A stretch of 64,000 bases of DNA from Mytilus edulis (Eukaryota). The notes under the pieces are model-generated. The model saw only the letters and a program-made list of their open reading frames with translations. It ran no database searches and was not told the origin of the DNA. The stretch covers positions 74,586,001 to 74,650,000 of the forward strand of contig NC_092356.1 of the NCBI RefSeq assembly GCF_963676685.1, written 5' to 3'. The position numbers and the translations under genes are program-made. Positions 3,608 to 60,302 of the stretch are shown piece after piece (the first letter of the stretch is position 1; every line of letters begins with the position of its first letter).

Positions 3608-5823
3608 ATGGCTGAATCTACTGAACCAAACCCAAGCAAACTAAAAAGACTGAAAAAGACCAACTTCACTGTGGCAGAGGAAGACCTGATCCAACAACTA
3701 GTTGAGAAACACTCCAGTATAATTAATGGAAAACTTACAAATACAGTGACCAACCAATTGAAAAAAAAGGTATGGGATGACATAGCCATCAAAGTCAATT
3801 CTCTTGGAGTTGCCATCCGTACAGCCACAGAAGTTAGGAACAAGTGGAGGAATACCACAAGAGTGGCCAAGGCTGTGTACACAACTCACAGGAGTGAGTT
3901 GTTCAAAACTTGGGGAGGACCAGCTCCAAAACAACCTAGCTCTGCAGTAGAGAAAGTTATCCATCTTATGAAGGACACCACCAGCTTCAGGGGGATTCAG
4001 GGTGGACTTGAAACTGAATCATTCCAGACAAGTAAATATTTTTTAACACTTTGAAATAAATCCCCAAATGTGTTTTCCCCTTAATTAGAACTTCTCAAGG
4101 CTCTACCCTTCTTATTGAACTTTGTAAAAAGTAACTTGATCAGTTTCACTTAACATGTTTTTATTTATCATATAAAAACAAACATTTTTGGCAAAATTTT
4201 GTTTTGAAGGTTCTTTTTATTGTTATTGTTAATTTTCAATGAAATTAACATAAATATTTGTATCCTTTTTAATACCGGGATACATAGTTTCCTTTATTAA
4301 ATTTTGGTTAAAGTTTCGTCTGCTCCGCCGTCACAACAAGTAGGGGAATTCCCAACTGATATCACGTGACTGATAACAATTTATTTTAACCAATATTTTC
4401 CATCATTAAATGATTGCCAACGTGTTTCTTGTTGGTTTGAAGGTTTTCCACTTGATATAATATTGAAAGATTGCATTTGCTTAAACTGATAACAGTTTTA
4501 AAGTATTATTTTTAACATTAGTTCACAAGTGGCTGTAGGTGCCCGCCAAGTCGTCTTTAAACTGGTATCTGTTGATTGATTAAAGGGAACCGCAATAGCT
4601 AATTTCGACCGAAAACCAGTCATGATTTATATTATTAAAACAGATACGGACTGGTTGTCATAAATCCGGAATAAAGTTGATCAATTTGTTGTTGCAGACT
4701 GAACCTAGACAGGAACACATATTAGTTTATAGCTGAGACCCTTGATAATCTGAAAAGGGTTGAAATAGGGTCTTATTTAGTCTTGTGCAATATTTTTTAT
4801 CTTGCAATTTAAAGTAATTGTATCTGAATTTAATTGAATGATGATATATATATATATATATAGTATGCCTTTTCAATTGCCCCCCCCCCCCCCCCCTTTT
4901 ATAATTAATAAAATATACCCAAACACAGTATCAACGAATAATTTTGTTCTCATTTATTACAGATCAACCATCTATCAATGCCACTTTGCCGGAAGAAGAT
5001 GCCAGCCAGGATTTGTATGAATCTGCAGCATCTCTGATAAGGGACAGTCCACCCCCCTCCAGTCCACCAAGTCCGTCTCTGCTTTCAGGATATGACCCCA
5101 TCCTGACACAAACAGTCGTACCACATATTCAAGAACAAACAGATAGGACAGATAAGCAGAAGTAAGTTGTAAATGTAAAAAAAGAAGATGTGGTATAATT
5201 GCCAATGAGACAGCTCCCCACAAGAGACCAGAAATTAACAACTGAAGGTCACCGTAAGCCACCTTCAACACAAACGATTTTTAGTTCACAAGTAGAATGA
5301 ATATTTTCCCGAAATTTTAGATTTAAAAAAAAATAATTCTACCGTACTATGGGGATGTATACAAGAACTCTATAAAAATGTGTTGTGGAAACAGGTTCCG
5401 CTAGATTATTTGGTCAATACTTCAAGTTTTCTTTTTTTACCTTTTCATATATTTCTGGCAGTTTCCCCCACCTATTCACATATTTCAAGCCGGAAAACGT
5501 GACAAATTCTGACTGGCTATTTCATGGAACTATGACATTGAATCGATCAATAAAAAGAGATGTAAAATTAATCGATCTTTTACAGAATTCATTATGTTTT
5601 TATTATTTGTAGGACAGTGAGAACACCTTTGAAAAAGGTAACAGTGCAGGATATTCACGACATGCAGTATCGTGCACTGCAAGGTAAACTCCAAGAGAAG
5701 CAGAAAGTGCATATGGACTTGGAGAGGAACAAACTGGAACTACAAATTGAGCTGTTGCAGAAGTTAGTGGGTGGCAATTCTGAACCAGTAACACTCTCTC
5801 AGGCACTTGCCTCTATGTATTAA
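3608..5823 (+). CDS. Myb/SANT-like (trihelix, NAIF1/MSANTD-like) DNA-binding protein of the Harbinger; exons 3608-4031, 4963-5161, 5613-5823; 277 aa
   Basis: Motif 'NFTVAEEDLIQQLV...KKKVWDDIAIKVNSLGVAIRTATEVRNKWRN'. GT-AG introns with matching phases (A|AT, AA|G) join three ORF-track pieces into 834 nt without stops. C-terminal coiled-coil-like 'LERNKLELQIELLQK'. Confidence 0.9.
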
Positions 5824-6357: not shown

Positions 6358-9300
6358 TTAGGCAAAAAAAGTGGTAGCAAAATGATCCCGTATGCCTTTT
6401 CCGTCCTGTGGACCATTATAGGGTGGCATCTGAGGTTGATTGTCAAACAATTGTTCTTCTGCAACTTCAGGTTCATTCCTCATGATGGCAATATTGTGCA
6501 GAATACCACAAGCAATGATAATTCGGCAAGCTTTATCAGGTTTCATTCGGATCTGGAATACAATTAAAAAACATTTATTTTAAAGTGTGATAGAAATACT
6601 ATTTGTTTGTAGCATGAATTAACCTTGCTCATGAATAAGTCTGAGATTAAGTAAATCTATTACAAAAACGTTAACACTATAATTTAATTAAACAAGAGTG
6701 CACACACTGAAATGTCTCGCCTTCTTTACTAATCATTGATACTATCTTGATAGACCTAAATATAAAGCTTTTATTACAACTGTCACATAAACTCAACATA
6801 AACCAAGAAAATGAAACATTGATCAATGAACCATGAAAATGAAACATTGATCAATGAACCATGAAAATGAAACATTGATCAATGAACCATGAAAATGAGG
6901 TCAAGGTCAGATGAACCATGCAAGGCAGACATGTACAGCTAACAATTCTTCAATACAACAAATATAGTTGACTTATTCCTTATAAAAAAAGAAAAACAGA
7001 CCAAAACACAAACACTTTTATAAACTTAGCAATGGACCGTGAAAATGAGGTCAAGGTCAAATAAAACCTGCTTAACGGACATATAGATCATAAAATATTT
7101 CCATACACCAAATATAGTTTATCTAATGCATAAAGTATTAGAAAAATAAACCAAAACTAACTTTGACCACTGAACCATGAAAATGAGGTCAAGGTCAGAT
7201 GACACCTGTCAACTAGACATGAACACCTTACAATCATTCCATACATCAATTATAGTAGACCTATTGCATATAGTATAAGAAAAACAGACCAAAACACAAA
7301 AACTTAACTATAACCACTTAACCATGAAAATGAGGTCAAGGTCAGATGACACCTGCCAGTTGGACATGTACACCTTAGAGTCCTTCCATACACCGAATAT
7401 ACTAGACCTATTGCATATAGTATCAGAAATATGAACTTGACCACCAAAACTTAACCTTGTTCACTAATCCATGAAATGAGGTCGAGGTCAAGTGAAAACT
7501 GTCTGACAGGCATGAGGACCTTGCAAGGTAGGCACATACCAAATATAGTTATCCAATTACTTATAATAAGAGAGAATTTAACATTACAAAAAGTCTTAAC
7601 TTTTTTTTCAAGTAGTCACAGAACCATGAAAATGAGGTCAAGGACATTGGACGTGTGACTGACGGAAAGTTCGTAACATGAGGCATCTATATACAAAGTA
7701 TGAAGCATCCAGGTCTTCTACCTTCTAAAATATAAAGCTTTTAAGAAGTGAGCTAACACCGCCGCCGCCGCCGGATCACTATCCCTATGTCGAGCTTTCT
7801 GCAACAAAAGTTGCAGGCTCGACAAAAAGGGACCAAATCAAACATAAAGCTGAACAAACAGTCCAACAACTGATGATGTACTGTTACATTCACGATTTAA
7901 TAAAGTTATTGTAATGACTAACTTTGAGCAGTTACCCCAACATGACTACATAATTTGGTTGGTTGTTGGTTGCTTAACGTCCAGTGGCAAATATTTCATG
8001 CATATTCAGGCCGAGAACAAGTTCACAATAAATGCAATAGGTAGATCTTGTCATAATAGAGGCCATTTGGGATGATGGTCGGAGAAGTTTGGACTGCCAC
8101 TGGAAAATGAGGGTATATTGGATAGGGACAGAAATTGTGCCTTGCAACAGGCCACTTACGGGCCCTCAATGAGTCGTTGCACAGGTTCTTAACGTGCTCA
8201 GAGCGTGGCACTCTCTTTACTCGAGACTTGGATTCAACGTCCACATTCTGACCGGACGTGACTGCGAACTTATACATCCCGCACAGCCAAACGGACGCTC
8301 CACTTCAGCAAGCGTTTTACTGTCGGTCGGAAGAAGACCACGTGACCATATTTCTATTCCCCATTCACCCTTGGAGTACATTAAGTTACCGGACTAACAT
8401 CACCAATTTTCCAACTGGATACCTGTTATCAGTACATGTATAATTTTCGGGTTTTGATCTGTGTGCAGATGAATTGTCGATCATTGTGTTCTTGTCCTGG
8501 CTTGATATTTAACGTGTTTCTGATGTCAGCTTTATCAGCCCTTAAATATACAACTGATTTTTCATTTTTTTCCGAGTTTTATTACGTGATAAAAATAAGG
8601 AGAGTTGGTGTGATTGTTAATTTTATAACTAAAATGTATGTATCCTGCAAAGTTAAAATGAAGTCGATGTAAGCAATTATAGGCAACCATACTGTGGTCA
8701 GCAAAAAAAAAAACACCAAAAAACGTATAGTAGCTACATGTATAAAGAAAAGATAGAGAAGGGGACCATTAATACCTTAACCGAAATTTAGAGAAATCGA
8801 AAAATGTACTAATGAAAGATTTAGTAGACAGCCGTCTCACAAGAAAAAAAAAACATGACTTTTAAAATATAAGGGCATACATGGCATATATCATGTCAAA
8901 TATTCATGTTACTATACTGTGATTATTTGTAAAGAATTAATTGTACCTCTGATCCTAGAATGTGAAAGCGCTTCTTCCATATTCCAAATGTCCTTTCTAT
9001 TGTCGACCTTGTTGAGCAATTTCTTCTGTTAAACCTTGCTTGACCTCTACCAGCAGCTGGTTGTCTGTATGGTGTCAGCAAAAACTGTCTGCAGGGATAG
9101 CCACTATCTCCTAACAATACACCTTGTCCAATTCCTTGATATACATTCTCAAGATGTTGTCCTATGGCTGAGGTTCTGAAAACGTGAGAATCATGTGCTG
9201 ATCCTGGCCACCTAGCACTGATGTTGGTGAATCTACCTTTAAACAAAAATATGATAGTTACAAAAGTTAAAAAAGTAGTTCCATAATTCATTAGTCAAGG

Positions 9301-12073
9301 CAAAGCAAATCAGTGATTGTGATTAAGTATGGTGACCCAAGCTGTTTATTTCCGTGTCATTTAATTTCTTGTGATTTGTCCCATTTAAGCAATCATTACC
9401 ACATCTTCTTTTATGTGCATACATATAGTTTGTCCATTATAGTTCTAGTCATTAAAATGTTAGCTGAATTTGCAATGTGATGAAAGCAAAATATAAAATT
9501 GAGAAAGGAAATGGTGAATATGTCAAAGCGACAACCACCCGACCATAGAGCAAACAACAGCCGAAGGCAACCAATGGGTCTTCAATGTAGCGAGAATTCC
9601 CGCACCCGTAGGTGTCCTTCAGCTGGCCCCTAAAATATGCATAATAGTACAGTGATAATGGACGTCATACTAAACTCCGAATTATACACAAGAAACTAAA
9701 ATTTAAAATCATACAAGACTAACAAAGGCCAGAGGCTCCTGACTTGGGACAGGCGCAAAATTGCGGCGGGGTTAAACATGTTTATGAGATCTCAACCCTC
9801 CCCCTATACCTCTAGCCAATGTAGAAAAGTAAAAGAATAACAATACGCACATTAAAATTCAGTTCAAGAGAAGTCCGAGTCTGATGTCAAAAGATGTAAC
9901 AAAAGAACATAAATAAAATGACAATAATACATAAATAACAACAGACTACTAGCAGTTAACTGACATGCCAGCTCCAGACCTCAATTAAACTGATTGAAAG
10001 ATTATGTCTTCATCATATGAATATCAGGTACAATCCCTCCCGTTAGGGGTTTAGTATCATACTATCATAAAATATATGAGAAGAACATAACCCGTGTCAT
10101 GCCAACAACTGTTATTTTTTTAAAGAAATAAATGTGTTTAGTTCCGATGCAAAGACCCTATCAGTGAATCAATGTTAAAGCCAAAATATGCAATCTTTAA
10201 TGACCTGACAACAGTATCGTAACTATATCCCCTTTTAATAAGTCTATTTAAAGGTTTTGTTAGTTTCTGAGGAGAATACTGACATTTTTGTGCTTTATAA
10301 AGAATATTTCCATAAAATTTTGGATGTGAAATACCTGAACGTATAAGATGTCTGCATGTTGAGTTATATTTACGAATTATTTCCTTATACCGGTGATAAA
10401 ATTTAGTAAATGTTTTGACCAGTTTGTGATATCGAAAACCCTGGTGTAATAATTTTTCAGTAATACATAAATTTCTCTCGCTAAAATCTAATACATTGTT
10501 ACATACACGAGCGAATCGTACAAGTTGAGATATATAAACACCATAAGATGGTGACAAGGGAACGTCACCATCTAAAAATGGATAATTAACAGTAGGAAAT
10601 GAAAAATCATCTCTTTTATCATAAATTTTTGTATTAAGCTTCCCGTTTATGATATAGATATCAAGATCGAGGAAAGGGCAGTGGTCATTGTTATCATTAG
10701 CTTTATTTAAAGTAAGTTCTACAGGATAAATTTCTTTAGTATACATACTGAAGTCGTCATTATTTATGTATAGTTTTATAAACAATCAGTCAGATAAACA
10801 ATACATCGGGGATCAAAGCAGTTAATTATATATATGCTCCCTTAACATTTAAAAAAAAAAATATTTTGAACAATGACTGGCTTATTTTCCAATCAAAAAG
10901 AATGGGGGAGGCGAACTTGATATTTGGATGACAGATTGGACACTTATTTTTTGTTCAGTTGTCACGTTTTTCAGTTTTGTATGGGTTTTTTTCAAGTACG
11001 TGTTGTTGTTGTTTTTTTTTTTTGTTTTTTTTTTTTGGGGAGGGGGGGGGTCTTCTCACTGAAACATTTAGAGGTAGATCTAGAATTTCTTCAAACTGCA
11101 AGGGGCACACTTTTTGTTGACGTTTCAAAGTTTATAAGCCTGACTGTGACAAATTCTACCTAAAGATAAGGGTTGGCAAAATCTATATAACTATTTTGAT
11201 CAATAAATTTATGTTCATTAACTCTTAGCAGTTCACTCGATCCAGCATATTTAAAAGTGAAACAGTAAAAACAGAAAAGTGAAACGGTAAAATTAGAGAC
11301 ACATTATATGTATATGTCTCTGGTAAAAAACAATGAGTCTACGGATCCAATAGAAAGTATGACAAGATTGAGTTGTCTTTCTTTTTCCATCGATTTTCAA
11401 ATTAGCTGAAAAGCAGTTCAACAGAAAACCAGCCATGTGTATGGTCAAGGACGATTGAAGATGTCAAGAAAAAGCACGCACACAAAGCATGTTGTAAATA
11501 TAAAATAGGTATAATACAGTGTTTTAAATTACCTTCATGGTCACAAATGGCTTGTACGTTGATGCTGTGGAACCCCTTTCGGTTAACAAATGCTGGTTCA
11601 TCAATGCTAGGCCCAGTAATCCGTATGTGAGTCCCATCAATGCATCCAACCACGTTTGGAAAACCAGCCTTTTCATAAAACCCAGCCCTTATTACGTTCT
11701 TCCTCTGATTATCTGGCCACGATATGAAATCATCTTTCATGGCAACTAATGAATCCGTCACACGGTTAATCACCCGAGATACAGTTGATTTGTCAAATCC
11801 CATTGTGTCCCCAACTACTTGCAAGTGTGATCCACTTCCATAAAATCTCAAGGCAATCATAATCTGTTGTTCCACTGAAAGGGCTGTCTCCTTGTTTGTC
11901 CCACGCTCAAGATCCCCTCTCATTAAATCTGACAGGTATGCAATAGTCTCCCTGCCAAATCTATATCTCTGCCTTAGCTCCTCATCAGAAAATTCCCTTT
12001 CTAGAGGGTCAAAACCGCGAAAATGTCGCTCTCTTCTTACAACAGGTGGTTGAAACAAAACATTGACAGCCAT
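6358..12073 (-). CDS. Harbinger (HARBI1-like) DDE transposase; exons 12073-11533, 9236-8947, 6552-6358; 341 aa
   Basis: Catalytic motifs GCIDGTHI (D), LGDSGYP (D), [12 protein letters not shown] (E), plus [23 protein letters not shown] and [14 protein letters not shown] splice sites in phase (G|GT, then phase 0) give 1026 nt uninterrupted. Confidence 0.93.
6690..7826. mobile_element. Non-autonomous Helentron/HINE-like element with central ~146-bp tandem repeats, in transposase intron 2
   Basis: AACAAG at one end; about 6 units marked by ACCATGAAAATGAGGTCAAGG; (CCG)n microsatellite; terminal hairpin GTCGAGC-TTT-CTGCAAC-AAAA-GTTGCAG-GCTCGAC followed by an A-run. Confidence 0.75.
7955..8400 (-). 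mobile_element. SINE, probably with a Deu/Nin-like central domain; 5' boundary approximate
   Basis: Minus-strand tail ...ATATTTGCCACTGGACGTTAAGCAACCAACAACCAACC. The segment TTCTTAACGTGC...GGATTCAACGTCCACATTCTGA resembles the Deu/Nin domain as recalled. Confidence 0.5.
9727..9817 (-). ncRNA. Twister ribozyme, P5-type permutation, core intact
   Basis: GGCUAGAGG-UAUA-GGGG-GAGGG-[UUGAGAUCUCAUAAACAUGUU]-UAA-CCCC-GCC-GCAAUUUUGC-GCCUG-UCCCAAGU-CAGG-AG-CCUCUGGCC. Matches the twister core (UAA, P2, GCC, P4 with UCCCAAG loop, GAGGG). Predicted cut between 9774 and 9773. Confidence 0.8.
10013..10079 (-). promoter_or_regulatory. Type II eukaryotic SECIS element
   Basis: Minus strand: helix I UCAUAU/AUAUGA; core AUGAU...UGAU; 11-bp helix II AGUAUGAUACU/GGGAUUGUACC (2 mismatches); apical AAA; mini-stem CCC/GGG. 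About 60 nt after the RT stop codon. Confidence 0.8.
10138..10766 (-). pseudogene. Reverse transcriptase C-terminal (RT motifs 6-7/thumb) fragment of the Penelope-like element
   Basis: EIYPVELTL...CPFLDLDI...[10 protein letters not shown]...[15 protein letters not shown]...KLLHQGF. The fragment starts just after the position expected for YxDD, so it is truncated. The frame is open to TAA at 10138. Confidence 0.88.
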
Positions 12074-12084
12074 CTTAGATTGAG

Positions 12085-12252
12085 GTTAATCAACTGATTA
12101 AAATTTAATCACCCTCAATGAGGTCGATTAAATATAACGACACTTTGACATTTTTAAACGACTCGTTAAATTTAACGACAAGTTGAACAACATGATAATG
12201 GACTGATTAAATTTAACGCAGTGATTAGTAAAATTTAACGACTCGTTTAATT
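12085..12252. repeat. Right subterminal repeats of the Harbinger
   Basis: Repeated TTAAATTTAACGAC / AACGACTCGTT / AATCAACTGATT motifs, including a partial second TIR copy at ~12172-12190. Confidence 0.75.
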
Positions 12253-12674
12253 TAACGACAAGTTGAACAACAGACCCCAGGTGTCTGCTGGCATTGAATT
12301 GGATACCAGTTTTATGTAGGCGTAACAATTCATCACATTTATCCAATCAGCTGTCTTGTGTGCGATCTCATAAGGTCCACATAGTTTAGTTTTTATGCCC
12401 CACCTACGATAGTAGAGGGGCATTATGTTTTCTGGTATGTGCGTCCGTTCGTTGTACCGTCTGTACCGCTTCAGGTTTTCCAAATAAGAGATTGTACCCC
12501 AATTTCACGTTCCACTGAACATAGAAAATTATAGTGCGAGTGGAGCATTCGTGTACTGAGGAAACATTCTTGTTTATACATGTTATGGTAGCGATAAAAA
12601 ATATTCGTGCAGAATATACATATACTATGAAACAAACAATATCCTGTCCTGTGCATATGTCGTGTACAAGTTGC

Positions 12675-14687: not shown

Positions 14688-17174
14688 CAGATGGGTGCGG
14701 TCCTAACCTTGACAAAAGTTAACTTAGAGTTAACTTGTTGACTGCTTTCTGAGTTAACTTGAGAATATTTAAGCAGTCAAGCAAGTTAACTTCCTCGTTG
14801 GTGGACCAGACCTACGGTCTGCTTTTTTAGGACCGCTGCAGACCTATCGACAAGTCTGCTTTTAACCAGTCCTGAGGACAGGTCTGCCCCAGACCAGACC
14901 TGTGGACAAGTCTGCTTTTGACCAGTGCTGAGGACAGGTCTGCCTCAGACCAGAACTGTGGATAGGTCTGCTCCTGACCAGACCTGAGGACAGGTCTACT
15001 TTTGACCAGACCTGTGGACAAGTCTGGTATTGACCAGACCTGAGGACAGGTCTGCTTATGACAGTATATCGTTATAATTGTCTTCATATCAGACTTGAAC
15101 ATGTTGAACTTTAATTAAAATACGGAAACAACATTCGCATTGTTTTTCCACAGATATCACTTATTATTTACTCGCTAGACTCTACTAGATATTATAAAAA
15201 TTCTCTTTTTTTTATTTGATATACATGTATTCTTAAATAAATAAAAAAAATGCCTATACAATTACATAGAGTGAGTTTTTTTTATTAGAAGGCGGATAGA
15301 AAGGTTGTCCAACGCTTCGGAGCAATATTCACGGGATATCAACAACATTGTCGACGTTGCTTCGTTCCCCGTTTTTTACCTGTCCCTTCCTTAATTTAAC
15401 TTTATGCCTAAATTTGTACATGCATGGATATTTCATTGTTATTCAACTTGTTTGCATTGAATTAGTATTCTATTTTCCGCAGAATATTCTAACAGAAATT
15501 GTACAGTGTCCGTAAGCATACGTTGTGGTAAAACTATCAACAATCTCATCAAATTCGTCAGATTGGTCAAGAGATTTGTCTTTGCCGATTAATTGAGATA
15601 TGGGAAGTCCCAGAATTATACTCAATGCGCACTTTAATGAAATGGTTGCCACTTGAGGTTTAACTATAAGCAAAATCAATCAACCGACATAATAGATAAG
15701 TAGTATACTATTCCCAGAAGAAAACCTTTTTTTATTTAATCATTGTATTAAATTAGGGTAGTATTTGCAAATGAATACACCTTAATATCGCTATTTGTCC
15801 GCCATTGTTGGATATCAGACAGGTTGTCGTAAAAATTTGGATGTCATCAAAAAAAATATCTGACGCCACAATGGAAAAGTGATTGTTGTATGCGTCAAAA
15901 GTTCAATCGGCTGGGTCAGCCGGGATTAGCTATAAGTTGTATTCAGACATGTCAGTGTTGGTACTTTGATGATGCCGCATAATAGTTTTGTATAACACAC
16001 CAACATGAACTACTATATATGATGTAACTGTTATTTTGAATAAAGAGATGAAATGCTGACACTCTCATTTTATGTGAAATTTTTTTTGCATTTATATAGT
16101 TTTCCAATATTATTGATTACATGTACATTTATGGTCCTACTAAAAACTTCTGATTTTAAAAAAATTGCTGATTAACTATTCAGGTATATAGACTTACAAT
16201 TTAAAGTTCACATATGGTCAGTTTTGGTCGATGCGGTCAAATAATTTTGTTGTAAAGTCAGCATGAGGTATCAAAACTACTGAAATTTTGTTACATATCA
16301 ATATTTTGAGTAAAAGGAGGACATGCTAGTATCCTAAATTTATGCGAACACAAATTTGTAGTCATGTGTGTAAATGAATTAAACTATTGCAGATTGTGAC
16401 TGCATAGTTCAAATATGTATTACTAATAAGGACGTATACAACTAACATCAACTATACTTCTTTCCAAAGATATACATGATCATACATAATAAAGTGCAAA
16501 TATTTTTGAATATGATAGGTAATGGAATATATATATATTCAGTGCCCGTTATCATTGTAGCCAAGATCGTTTTTATAATTGATAGATAGTCAGATCACAG
16601 ATCAATTTGTGTTACAAGCAACGTTTTATGCGTACTTAATTTTCAAATAATTCATTTTGTATTTAATACTGTTTATAAAAAGGAAGTATTAATTTTACTT
16701 TATTTTCGATGTTTACACTACAAAACAAAGATATTAAAAATATTTTTAAAAAATCGTATAAGCGGTCCTGGTTACAAGTTAACTTAGTGTTGAGCAGACC
16801 AGTCAAAAGTTAACTTGGGAACAGGTCTGGTTTTCATCGGATTTGTCAAAGCAAAAGTTAGCTTATGTTAACTTTGTGGCAGGACTGGTTTCGAAGTTAA
16901 CTTATGTTAACTTTATGACAGGACTGGTTCCGAAGTTAACTTTTGACAGGACTGGTTCGAAGTTAACTTATGTCAATAGCGGACCTGTTTCCAAGTTAAA
17001 TTTTTGGCAGACATAAAAACAGTCTGTGGACCAAGTCCCCTTTTCAAGTTAACTAGATTTTGGTCCCAGGACTGGTCAGAGCAGTCCTAATTTCGGTCAC
17101 AGGTTAACTTTGACCAGTCCAAATGGCTGATTATCAAATTAACTTGCTGTAAAGGTTAGGACTGCACTAATCTG
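14688..17174. mobile_element. Complete non-autonomous TIR element (CAGATGGGTGCRGTCCTAACCT termini, TA target; Tc1/mariner-like ends)
   Basis: Termini at 14688 and 17174 split a satellite monomer at CAAAA-TA-CTGATAC (left copy reads TC). AAGTTAACTT repeats near both ends; GACCAGACCTG(A/T)GGACAGGTCTGC repeats at 14830-15060. Confidence 0.8.
15773..15944. mobile_element. Small MITE
   Basis: GAATACACCTTA..ATCGCTA / TAGCTATAAGTTGTATTC inverted ends; absent from the paralog at ~27628. Confidence 0.55.
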
Positions 17175-35605: not shown

Positions 35606-35988
35606 TATAAAAAAGTAGATGTGGTATGATTGCCAATGAGACAACTATCCATAAAAGACCAAAATGACACAGACATTAACAACTATAGGTCACCGTACGG
35701 CCTTCAACGATGAGCAAAGTCCATACCGCATAGTCAGCTATAAAAGGCCCCGATAAGACAATGTAAAATATTCAAACGAGAAAATTAACGGCCTTATTCA
35801 TTGTTATTTATGTGAAAAAATGAAAGAAAAAACAAATATGTAACACATAAACAAACGACAACCACTGAATTACAGGCTCCTGACTTGGGACAGGCACATA
35901 CATAAATAATGTGACGGGATTAAACATGTTAGCGGGATCCCAACCATCCCCCTAACCTGGGACATTGATATAACAGTACAGCATAAGA
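35606..35988 (-). mobile_element. Short twister-bearing retroelement (family 2)
   Basis: Reverse complement of 59935-60302. Tail-only fragments at ~5176-5270, 6090-6130, 28920-28950, 29975-30240 and 54430-54528. Confidence 0.75.
35873..35959 (-). ncRNA. Twister ribozyme copy (repeat family 2), partly mutated
   Basis: CAGGUU-AGGGG-GAUGG-UUGGGAUCCCGCUAACAUGUU-UAA-UCCC-GUC-...-GCCUGUCCCAAGUCAGG-AGCCUG. GAGGG is mutated to GAUGG. Confidence 0.7.
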
Positions 35989-36935
35989 ATATCAATATAT
36001 TGATCAAAAGGAGGACATGCTGGGACTCTTGACTGGTGCAGACAAAATTTTGTAGTCATGTGTTTTAATAATGCTTTCATTTTGTAAGAATATCAATATA
36101 TTTATCAAAAGGAGGACATGCTGGGACTCTTGACTGGTGCAGAAAATTTTTTGTAGTCATGTGTTTTAATGATGCTTTAATTTTGTATAATAAATTCTAT
36201 CCTGAAAATAAAATATTGCTGATTGTATCTACATAAATCAAGGTCGTGTAACTAATAATGATGTATTTATGTAACTAACATTTTATATACGTCCTTGCAT
36301 AGATATACATAATTAAGTTAACAGTTAATTTAATAAAATGACTATATAATAGATATACATGATTAAACTGCAGTTTTGAGTAGCTATAGATGAAAAATTA
36401 ATACATTACGAAATCACAGCCCTGTAAGCCATAGTCAATGTAACGCCCAATGTGACGTCACATGTAAATTTCTAAAATGTGTTCCGAAAATTCATAGAAT
36501 TTGGATGAAATTCAAGATTATATTTGTATGACTCATCTAACTTATATTAATAACAGTGAAAATTATAATACTAATTAATATTTAATTGAAGTAGTTATTA
36601 GATAATTAATTGTATTATCTAGCTTTGTGGTTGTTTCTTCTGATCAAACTGTGAACCATTTATGACTGGTTCGAAGTTAACTTATTGCAATAGCGGACCT
36701 GTTTCCATGTTATTCTTATGGAAGACATAAAAACAGTCCTAGGATCAAGTCCGCTAGATTTTGGTCCTATGGCTGGTCAGAGCAGTCCTAAATCCGGTCA
36801 CTGGTTAACTTTGACCTGTCCAAAATGACTGGTTATCAAGTACAATTGCTGTACAGGTTCGGACTGCACCCATCTATATATTTGTATTGTAGTCCTGTCA
36901 TGTAATATTGTCATTTAAATGATGATATCAACATT

Positions 36936-53879: not shown

Positions 53880-56740
53880 ACAATATCCCTAATGCGCCTT
53901 GAAATGAGGAACTCAAAATTCACGTGTAAACAAACACATTCTGTGAGTGATATTGGACATGTTTCTATAATAAACAAGTGTCTGAGCTTAACCATTTGTG
54001 TTAATTTAGAAAGTAGGGGAACACATAATAAATGTGTAAAATCTGTGTAGCTATTAAATGTGTCAAAGTATTTAATTTTCAAAATTTAAAAAGAACGTAT
54101 TGTGTAATAAATGGGATTGTTTACCATGAGGAGCCGCATCACAAAAGGATACCCCGAAAATTTGACCACATATGTTAAAATGTCTCAGCAGTGAAACAAG
54201 CCATCAAAATTAACGATATGGACTGAGCAACAGACGAAAACGTTACCATTACCGCCTATGGATAAACTATTACGCATCTTCACCCAATTTAAAAGATAAA
54301 TTTCAGAAGTTTTCAGACTGATCTATGAATGATATCATCTTGTACACTACAAAAAAATTGTAAAAATCATGCTTTTAAAATGCATTACTGGCACGGAGCT
54401 GAACACTTTTTTAGGCACAATCATAATTAGATATAGGAAGATGTGGTGTGAGTGCCAATGAGACAACTCTCCATCCAAATAACAATTTAAAAATTAAACC
54501 ATTATAGGTTAAAGTACGGCCTTCAATAACTTTGTTAACCCTCGAAATATCCGAAAGGAATTTAATTTGTTTACTATATTGAAAAAGGCAAGAAATAACT
54601 TTAGAATATTTTTAAATTGTAAGTAAATATGACACCATATTGTCTTTGTTATGTAAATATCACTCTGGTCTACAAGAATACCTGATAATCAAGGGAGATA
54701 ACACACTTCATACGAGTAAAGTGAGATCCATCATCACATGTGCTTTTATCGAATGATTTGACCCCTGGTCAATAGATACCATATGCAAATCAACAGAAAA
54801 AAACATTAACATGTATTAAGAAAATCATGAATTATTTTTTTAATGCACTCGAGCAAAACTAAACATATTGTCATTTCTCAGTGAAAAGGGGGAGGGTCAA
54901 ACCTTTTTGAAAACAATATTTCTGCACCTATTCAACTATTAAGCTAGTTAACTACTACTCCTTTCTTCTAATATAAAAGGTTTAAATGAAGGTGGCTAAG
55001 CCACAAGGGAGAAGCATTTGTCTTTCTTTCGTATAAAATTTTATGACGTCAGACACACAAATCAATGAATGTGTTTGTATATAGATGTTTTTGTTTTCTG
55101 TGAAATTGTTCCTTTTAAAATTGATATACGATGATGACTGATGTAACAATATTCTGACTATTTTATTTATTGTGTCTGTTTAGTTAACGCATCAATGTAA
55201 ATGTAACGGAATTTGATGAGACTGTCATCAAAGTGAGAATGTTAGCGCTATAAACATGATAAAAACTGGTTTAATCCATCATTTTCTACATTTGAAAATG
55301 CCTGTACCAAGTTTTTTTTTGTCATATTTCAGTTCCAGACATATCATTACTTTTTAATCTGAGATGGCAAACTAGAGGTTTTAAAAAGTACTGAATAACA
55401 GGTAAACATTATGTTTTATTAGGCAAGCTCTAAATTATTTATTTATGGTATTTATGCAATTGAAATTAAAGTATGTATGTTAAAAATATGCTAATATGAA
55501 AACTGTTGCTACGGTCTTGATATTATATGAAAATGATTGGTTACTGATCTTTTCGACTCAATATTTCGTGTTTAATTTTGCAGCAACTGTTTCACACGTT
55601 ACACTACAAACTATATTAAGCACTATTTTGATCTGTATTTAATGACGCCATAAAACATGTGATGTCACAATGTTTCCTTTAAAACCTCATATGGATTTCT
55701 TACTGATAAAAGGTTTTCACTGAATTACATGTAAAAACCATGTTTTGTCTCAAATAGAATTATGTGAAAGGACAAGTTTTGAAAATTTACACTTCATTGC
55801 ACTCTAATTATATGATAAGAATGACTTGTCCAGTAGTTTAGAGTGGTTACCAAAGTATTAGATACCAGATTTTCACTAGTAAGAATAATTATTTTGGTGT
55901 TGTATTTTTTATGAAATCTTCATGTTTGCATAATTTCTCTGTCAACATGCACTTTTAGGCACGAAAAAAAATTATAGGATGCTTTAACAGGGTCGGTGTA
56001 TTGTAATTTAAGTTTATCATCAGAAGTTTCGTCCTTGTTTTGACTAGTGAAGATAAACTGGAAGAAATTAATTATACATACACATTGTATTCAAAATAAA
56101 TGAATATGGCGACAAAAATGTCATTGCCTTATAGTGCTTAAACAACTTAATTTTTTTTTTAGAAATGGACAAAAATACACAGATTTGTTAAACATGTTAT
56201 ACCGATGAAGATCACATAAAAATGTTTGGAAAAATCAGAACAATGGATTTCAATATGGGACAATATCCCTAATGCGCCTTGAAATGAGGAACTCAAAAGT
56301 CACGTGTAAACAAAAAATCTCTGTGTAGTGATATTGGACATGTGTCTATGATAAACAAGTGACTGAGCTTAACCATTTGTGTTAATTTGGTAAGTAGGGA
56401 CACAGAATAAATGTGTAAAATCTATGAAGCTATGAAATGTGTGTAAGTACTAAATTATAATCCTGGTACCTTTGATAACTTTTTAAAGTATTAAATTTTC
56501 AAAGAACTTATTGTGTTAAAAATGGTTTTTTTTTACCATGAGTAGCCTCATCACAAATTAATAGTCGGGGTTTGCTGATTTACCGGAAAAGAAATCTCAC
56601 TTCATACCCCGAAAATTTGACCACATATGTGAAAATGTCTCAGCTTCGAAACGAGCCGTCACACATATCCAAGTTAACGATATGGACTGAGCAACATACC
56701 ATTCCCGTCTATGGAGAAACTTATACGCATCTTGACCCAT
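53880..56740. repeat. ~400-bp dispersed direct repeat (53880-54290 and 56260-56740)
   Basis: Both copies start CAATATCCCTAATGCGCCTTGAAATGAGGAACTCAAAA. Confidence 0.85.
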
Positions 56741-59934: not shown

Positions 59935-60302
59935 TATACATGTTATACCAATGTCCCAGGTTAGGGGGAGGGTTGGGAACTCGCTAACATGTTTAACCCC
60001 ACCACATTATTTATGTATGTACCTGTCCCAAGTCAGTAGCCTGTAATTCAGTGGTTGTCATTTGTTTATGTGTTACATATATTTGTTTTTTGTTCATTTT
60101 TTTACATAAATAAGGCCTTTAGGTTTCTCGTATGAATTGTTTTACATTGTCTTATCAGGGCCTTTTATAGCTGACTATGTGATATGGGCTTTGCTCATTG
60201 TTGAAGGCCGTACGGTTACCTATAATTGTTAATTTTTGTGTCATTTTTGGTCTTTTGTGGATAGTTGTCTCATTGGCAATCATACCACATCTTCTTTTTT
60301 AT
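59935..60302 (+). mobile_element. Short twister-bearing retroelement (family 2)
   Basis: Ends in GTTGTCTCATTGGCAATCATACCACATCTTCTTTTTTAT; homologous to 35606-35988. Confidence 0.75.
59957..60043 (+). ncRNA. Twister ribozyme copy (repeat family 2)
   Basis: CAGGUU-AGGGG-GAGGG-UUGGGAACUCGCUAACAUGUU-UAA-CCCC-ACC-...-ACCUGUCCCAAGUCAGU-AGCCUG. Confidence 0.7.

Follow-up and report, generated by a model that had tools for sequence, protein, structure and literature searches.

The locus and the Naiad copy

We analysed a stretch of 64,000 nucleotides of the Mytilus edulis genome (the window; contig NC_092356.1, positions 74,586,001 to 74,650,000), and all coordinates below are positions within it. 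The minus strand carries a copy (9493..10766) of a Naiad, a clade of Penelope-like elements; the element is young, and the copy has lost its 5' part. This copy is 99.2% identical to a full unit and represents the 3' 1274 nt of that 4031-nt unit; the family to which it belongs is called family A here. The copy contains, likewise in minus-strand orientation, the last part of the RT frame (10138..10766; about aa 794-1002, with the TAA stop at 10140-10138), a type II SECIS (10013..10079), a twister-like motif (9727..9817) and, within 140 nt of the element's 3' end, a GC-rich hairpin (9558..9630; folding z -2.22 for 9540-9640). The copy is located in a GT-AG intron (9237..11532, minus strand) of a multi-copy Harbinger transposase gene and has the same orientation as this host gene. 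The intron is assigned based on the Pfam match of the transposase (DDE_Tnp_4, PF13359, E 3e-6), the splice sites and the empty insertion site present in seven other Harbinger copies; no clear target-site duplication was seen when the insertion was compared with these seven empty sites.

Candidate copies in the mussel's own genome number 1271, and the 40 that were scored are all 99-100% identical. The copies of family A share one 3' end but differ in where they start at the 5' side. The same genome also contains 2334 occurrences of a 23-mer taken from the Naiad_Mgal consensus in the literature (control 0).

The full-length element and its protein

Among 30 loci which contain the 5' end of the element, a 3' part precedes this end in 19, always at the same exact junction, and in one further locus the preceding part is inverted. 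Loci L068 and L070 contain a pair of complete 4031-bp units each, in head-to-tail order and with flanking parts. Between the tandem units of one locus there are 0-1 substitutions in 3600 nt, versus 8-13 between loci; this near-identity fits repeated copying of one template, and read-through transcripts or a duplication at the locus would explain it as well. Past the fixed 3' end the tandems have a hairpin, whose predicted fold is the same in family A and in a second family, B. A candidate splice in the 5' UTR (both families have a pyrimidine tract and CAG at the junction) was rejected, as no supporting joint was found in RNA reads, which are of low depth. The partial tandems (pLTR), the 5' truncation and the unit length of 4031 bp, within 3.4-4.4 kb, are structural marks of Naiads.

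All four full frames of L068 and L070 have 1002 codons, a TAA stop, and TGA at codons 55, 86, 97 and 522. The protein contains a GIY-YIG motif N-terminal to the RT (IIYLLT-U-NKPG-C-GIQYVGET, aa 91-110, read from the sequence), and the frame ends at the RT with nothing after it. Concerning the UGA-encoded positions, U55 belongs to a Zn finger (C50-x4-U55-x2-C58), U86 precedes the GIY-YIG core and U97 lies within it, as does C102; of the CCHH residues, the two Cys positions could be placed (U97/C102). A KR-rich block (RKNRSHGRRKNRNQRK) and a CxC motif (C385-x-C387) are also present, and a DKA motif lies eight residues before U522. Pfam gave no GIY-YIG or RT match for the 1002-aa protein, only a sub-cut-off match to ATE_N, and a PDB search with it gave no match. 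The earlier note had asked whether full-length relatives combine an N-terminal GIY-YIG with in-frame TGA at Cys sites, and both are present in four of four full frames; it had also placed the UGA codons in the missing 5' part, and all four indeed fall in the part which the window copy has lost.

The SECIS element

The SECIS begins at 10079, 58 nt past the TAA stop, in agreement with the roughly 60 nt given in the earlier note. Its core on the minus strand consists of AUGA (10068-10065), 12 nt, AAA (10052-10050) and, on the 3' side, UGAU (10026-10023), with an apical ministem of CCC/GGG. The Rfam model SECIS_1 matches 10014-10078 over its full length (model 1-64/64; 30.9 bits, E 0.0011). This score is below the Rfam gathering score of 35, and a scan of the whole window at gathering thresholds gave no Rfam match. 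The AUGA/AAA/GA core is kept in family A, family B and a third family, C. In addition, 11 of the 22 predicted stem pairs change on both sides with pairing kept (nine sequences from the three families). Based on the SECIS_1 match and the compensatory changes across three families, comparison of sequences confirms the SECIS of the window as real. The AUGA/AAA/ministem/UGA fold described earlier is thus borne out, and the conservation of the AUGA/AAA/GA positions has passed the comparison that had been suggested for it. The 'AUGA-11 bp-AAA' spacing holds as a fold, but the 11 bp are nominal, as the 12 nt of helix II include two mismatches (A-C and A-G) and three G-U pairs in the window copy; the A-C mismatch is G-C in the 92% subfamily.

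SECIS_1 matches families B and C weakly (E 0.097 and 0.88) and none of five Naiad_Mgal-type loci, which are mostly short and may stop before the RT stop. The exact 22-mer of the SECIS occurs 1830 times in the mussel's own genome (control 0). Concerning stability, the 67-nt element folds no better than its shuffles (z -0.04), while the SECIS together with a long basal stem (106 nt) has a z of -2.51. A long stem around the SECIS is predicted at 9937..10116 (minus strand) by the minimum-energy fold, and its flanks look conserved by eye in A, B and C. The 3' UTR contains neither AATAAA nor ATTAAA, and 30 genomic copies show no evident poly(A) tail past their 3' ends. The SECIS of the window copy itself is most likely an inert passenger, because this copy lacks the endonuclease and all of the UGAs and lies inside an intron.

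Selenocysteine codons in three families

In family A, TGA is present at sites 55, 86, 97 and 522 in 38/38, 38/38, 39/39 and 57/57 alignments, respectively, counts which come from overlapping loci picked by similarity and so from copies that are not independent; one 92% copy of the family has TTA at site 522. Family B, with 63% amino acid identity to A, has TGA at all four sites and a fifth TGA at the first Cys of CxC (site 385), which is TGT in A. Between A and B, pS is 0.72 (synonymous sites near saturation) and pN 0.24, and pN is also 0.24 around the three N-terminal UGAs. Family C is older; it has TGA in 5/6, 5/6 and 6/6 loci at sites 55, 86 and 97, and Cys (TGC/TGT) at site 522 in 16 of 20 loci. 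Among database relatives, site 522 is Cys in P0003 and P0010 and Trp in P0065. Judged from these sequences, Cys and selenocysteine appear to be exchanged at single sites, for example at 385 and 522.

At least three UGA-bearing Naiad families are present in this one genome, and one of them is very young. The earlier proposal of a selenocysteine-recoding parent Naiad is supported at the sequence level by the four TGA codons at Cys sites, the GIY-YIG and the SECIS in three families. From established biology, the four UGAs of the full copies are very likely read as selenocysteine via the SECIS.

The twister-like motif

The twister-like motif was assigned element by element from the pairing in families A, B and C, using pseudoknot registers and details of the type-P5 consensus which we take to be those of the class. 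It begins at 9817, about 195 nt past the SECIS end at 10013 (the earlier note gave about 200 nt), and is a permutation open at P5. Along the minus strand it consists of P5 (9817-9808/9736-9727), P2' (9804-9801), GAGGG (9800-9796), UAA (9774-9772), P2 (9771-9768), and then P3 and P4 with its loop (9749-9742). In the window copy P2 is CCCC/GGGG, the P4 loop is UCCCAAGU, and both pseudoknots pair. Pairing is seen in all three families for P2, P4, P5, the foot of P3 and both pseudoknots; these pairs were counted by script, the MAFFT alignment being out of register for family B. Compensatory changes in family B affect P2 (UCCC/GGGA), the second pseudoknot T2 (CCU/AGG), the Y-R pair (U-A) and the P3 foot, and family C keeps all twister elements with a different P3. 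The U^A site and the G of GAGGG are kept in all three family representatives. UAA and GARGG are found in 23 distinct sequences, both being demanded by the search pattern, so this is no independent count. The list of twister elements used for the comparison was taken from PMC11662667.

Rfam twister models gave no match in the region up to E 10, and a scan of the mussel's own genome with Twister-P5 (RF02684) gave no match either, with the controls equally silent. In the minimum-energy fold the cut site is paired with GGGUUGAG, which is an inactive shape.

Eight published bivalve Naiad consensus ends were compared by eye, out of 11 bivalve rows (Naiad_Mcor stops early), and the twister layout is found in five of the eight: Mgal, Bpla, Mphi, Scon and Mmer. 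By the same inspection it is absent from Naiad_Pmar and the record before it, and the Mgal, Bpla and Mphi types have only a short or imperfect P2. These last three are cysteine-type Naiads, and since they make up three of the five twister-bearing published types, the twister and the SECIS are independent features. The tandem of SECIS and twister pointed out in the earlier note is therefore present here, but it is not specific to SECIS-bearing elements as far as these published ends go.

Palindromes in place of P1

No P1 stem, which is reported to be dispensable in twisters (PMC11662667), was found: the 21 nt between GAGGG and UAA fold as a monomer at 0 to -0.8 kcal/mol. They contain two palindromes of 10 nt each on the minus strand, namely palindrome 1 in the P1 position (9785..9794; predicted self-duplex -15.6 kcal/mol) and palindrome 2, whose last base is the U before the cut (9774..9783; predicted self-duplex -8.6 kcal/mol). 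Both are present between GAGGG and UAA in A, B, C and every family compared, and two palindromes of 8 nt or more arise in this region in 24-205 of 100000 shuffles. The ends of Naiad_Mgal, Bpla, Mphi, Scon and Mmer, as published, each have their own palindrome 1 (by eye).

The palindrome centres vary yet stay self-complementary (GATC, GGCC, GCGC and CTAG in the mussel's own genome; TGCA and GCGC in published elements). Symmetric double changes are found both between and within families: GGATCC has become GGGCCC in three family-B loci, and CGAGCGCTCG and TAGCTAGCTA are further symmetric variants in other lineages of the genome, found with a relaxed pattern whose reach ends short of family B. Some genomic copies have broken palindromes. 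A self-complementary centre is required for a duplex of two molecules and not for a hairpin. Taken as a pattern in the comparison, the two palindromes in place of P1 suggest cleavage as a dimer, and we consider the prediction of dimer-dependent cleavage to be evenly balanced.

Cleavage site and RNA read ends

The predicted cleavage site is U9774^A9773 (9773..9774, minus strand). When raw RNA reads were placed on the permuted unit, 49 molecules of run X23 ended at the predicted cut base (L069:1783) at a depth of 203. None of the other pile-ups among the 22 listed is as large (the second has 21), and the strand is the one on which most stranded libraries would show the 5' end of a sense RNA; the pile-up may stem from duplicates or from cutting while the library was prepared. 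Among the pile-ups listed, the cut site is represented in one of three RNA-seq runs (X23, from one study) and in none for X21, X22 and the small-RNA run X24; the source organism of X21-X23 is possibly other than the species of the window. The twister likely cuts at U9774^A9773, and we predict with good confidence that the motif is active as a ribozyme.

A cut at this position would leave the SECIS 239 nt from the end of the RNA. Together with the lack of AATAAA or ATTAAA and of an evident poly(A) tail, this distance is consistent with the earlier suggestion that twister cleavage leaves the SECIS near a non-polyadenylated 3' end.

Fate of the cut RNA

Insertions were sampled as the first 30 exact matches by position along contig C1. 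All 30 have an intact cut site and 29 of them run 278-290 nt past the cut, so the insertions cannot simply have been copied from the cut RNA. Because all sampled insertions have an intact twister, the template is either the uncut precursor or a re-ligated circle. A circular template for reverse transcription comes close to an even chance in our view; such a circle would have the same sequence as a genomic tandem, and reads therefore cannot reveal it.

Short copies beginning at the cut were looked for in the same sample and none was found (0/30), the shortest 5' ends being at -41, -47, -56 and -59. Two of 36 incidental short matches start near the cut, at -1 and at +8, and each is about 86% identical. 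Exact half-site matches at the cut number 3449 upstream and 2461 downstream in the mussel's own genome, counts which depend on subfamily variants and were left out as a truncation profile.

Comparison with known systems

Selenoprotein Naiads were published in 2021 from clams (Naiad_Scon, Naiad_Mmer) and spiders (Naiad_Sdum, Naiad_Smim) (Craig et al. 2021, PMC8557442). The present families have in common with them the N-terminal GIY-YIG, CxC, DKA and the 3' UTR SECIS, as well as three UGA sites (the first Cys of CCHH, DKA+8 and the Cys that precedes GIY-YIG); 5' truncation and partial tandems are likewise shared with published Naiads (PMC8557442). The present families are selenoprotein Naiads of a mussel, whereas the two Mytilus families given in PMC8557442 have different sequences and are unmarked as selenoproteins there. 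The SECIS is of type II and lies about 60 nt after the stop, in contrast to type I at 1-21 nt in the published Naiads (PMC8557442). Family A combines the spider-type UGA (second Zn-finger Cys) with the clam-type one (first CCHH Cys), and families B and C have an extra UGA at the first CxC Cys, a site outside the list in PMC8557442. The selenocysteine families described here are new members of a published group, marked by the type II SECIS and by one additional selenocysteine site.

Concerning ribozymes, Craig et al. 2021 reported no canonical hammerhead in Naiads and argued from this absence that the ribozyme may be dispensable or parasitic; the word 'twister' is not in the main text (PMC8557442). 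The pLTRs of canonical Penelope-like elements carry minimal type-I hammerheads with a palindromic short stem, which are probably cut as dimers and have been proposed to give circles and tandem insertions (PMC6765202). A ribozyme in the terminal repeat, a palindrome instead of a proper stem and tandem units are common to both, but the ribozyme here is of an unrelated class (twister), has two palindromes and not one short loop, and is predicted to be cleaved as a dimer. With type-P5 twisters (RF02684), as described in PMC11662667 and PMC10085705, the motif shares the UA cut, P2, P4, two pseudoknots, an auxiliary P3 and ends joined at P5; it differs in having no intramolecular P1 and 21 nt with two palindromes instead, and in being missed by the Rfam models. 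Twister T-variants are also found on a retrotransposon in the non-LTR element Perere-3 of Schistosoma, where the twister is at the 5' end and the cut is the start of the element (PMC8501958); in the Naiad, 281 nt separate the cut from the 3' end of the element, and insertions start elsewhere. No literature linking the twister with Naiads was found in a search which mostly covered papers outside subscription, and the word 'twister' does not occur in a 2026 preprint that came up there; supplements of twister surveys may list such sequences without context.

Interpretation

The copy in the window is the 3' third of a young Naiad, probably a selenocysteine-recoding one with a tail twister that likely cuts. 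In the proposed mechanism, a transcript would start in an upstream partial copy (pLTR) and run through the full unit, so that it contains two twisters, and these would pair via the palindromes in place of P1. Paired cutting would release a unit-length, non-polyadenylated RNA with a 5'-OH and a 2',3'-cyclic phosphate, carrying the SECIS 239 nt from its end, while the uncut precursor or a re-ligated circle would serve as the template for reverse transcription; the tail twister would thus fill the role that the hammerhead has in other Penelope-like elements. Extended to the group, a tentative picture is that many bivalve Naiads carry a so far unrecognised two-palindrome twister which cuts as a pair, excising unit-length RNA for circularisation and sparing host RNAs with a single copy. 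In the selenoprotein families, an uncapped RNA, non-polyadenylated or circular, may then be decoded at 4-5 UGAs by one SECIS. The whole would be a convergence with the dimeric hammerheads of other Penelope-like elements.

Cutting as a monomer, with the SECIS reading holding and the palindromes serving RNA dimerisation for RT packaging or as a protein site on DNA, is less likely than not. P1 is reported to be dispensable: in a large in vitro screen of type-P1 twisters, imperfections in P1 did not lower cleavage (PMC11662667). In X23, moreover, the cut is the end point of 49 out of 203 molecules, although the expressed copies are probably mostly solitary. Against this, both palindromes are placed exactly between GAGGG and UAA in every family compared, all 30 sampled insertions derive from uncut or re-ligated RNA, and fast cutting by thousands of copies, some of them intronic, should harm host transcripts.

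A structural role of the motif (RT binding, 3' end protection or an aid to translation), with no cleavage in vivo and uncut read-through RNA being copied, is improbable. It would agree with the silence of the Rfam twister models, with the finding that none of 30 sampled copies starts at the cut and no pile-up is listed for X21 or X22, and with the absence of the layout, by eye, from Naiad_Pmar and the preceding record, so that Naiads can manage without it. It does not account for the U^A, the G of GAGGG and both pseudoknots being kept in A, B and C with covariation, or for the largest listed read-end pile-up falling on the predicted base. That the UGAs are real stops (of a dead or leaky element, or with a downstream start) and the SECIS-like fold a chance likeness or a relic is most improbable: the SECIS_1 score below the gathering threshold and the 67-nt fold no more stable than shuffles would suit it, but TGA is fixed at four Cys sites, both among young copies that are nearly identical and in a family with 37% divergence, purifying selection acts on both sides of each TGA codon, the sites match the selenocysteine sites given in PMC8557442, and the SECIS stem covaries.

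The preferred reading, a selenocysteine-recoding Naiad with a tail twister, has several consequences. Selenoprotein Naiads, an oddity in 2021, are widened to at least three UGA-bearing families in one genome. With about 1800 exact copies of the SECIS core genome-wide, the route by which a transposon donates a SECIS to a host gene becomes testable. A natural dimer-dependent twister, if true, would be a new ribozyme architecture. The presence of the twister also bears on the point left open by Craig et al. 2021 of whether the ribozyme is dispensable or parasitic (PMC8557442): if many Naiads use it, cleavage of the terminal repeat by its own ribozyme would appear to be a functional component of Penelope-like transposition.

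UGA placement and unit boundaries in the Naiad families

In families B and C, two of at least three UGA-bearing Naiad families of the genome searched (G000), UGA stands at the first Cys position of CxC, a motif diagnostic of Naiads (L126 for family B, L134-L153 for family C). Within the family C loci, TGC and TGA are mixed at site 522, one of the four UGA positions of family A, eight residues after DKA.

Other features of the window

Three further Naiad fragments are found in the window. Two are short family C 3' ends, at 35617-35989 (-) and 59941-60294 (+), each with 89% identity; they start 68 and 54 nt, respectively, before the predicted twister cut site (U^A), and both contain degenerate twisters. 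The third is an 86-nt terminal fragment of family B at 54441-54526 (-), with 97.7% identity. The Harbinger transposase element, with its intron, lies at about 8373-12275 (-), and similar sequence occurs at 13 or more places of G000; the element contains a short repeated block near 12150-12275. A short-period tandem repeat at about 14827-15114 is seen in ORF translations.

Termini with and without a twister

In part 21 of the PMC8557442 supplement, inspected by eye, the twister is absent from the 3' ends of Naiad_Pmar and the preceding record. Both ends share a different conserved motif with a palindrome at its start, which is possibly another, unrecognised ribozyme. L165-L167 (G000:C1:5262334-5262770) are three near-identical tandem units of 207 bp each with the Naiad_Mgal-type twister motif; the RT protein gave no match to them in tblastn, and the array looks like a twister-bearing retrozyme.

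At the unit start, a pyrimidine tract and CAG are found in family A (L068, about 5664-5745) and at the family B junction (L126), together with a hairpin whose predicted fold is identical in both families. This block, which directly follows the fixed 3' end, may serve as a splice acceptor or as a signal that the RT recognises.
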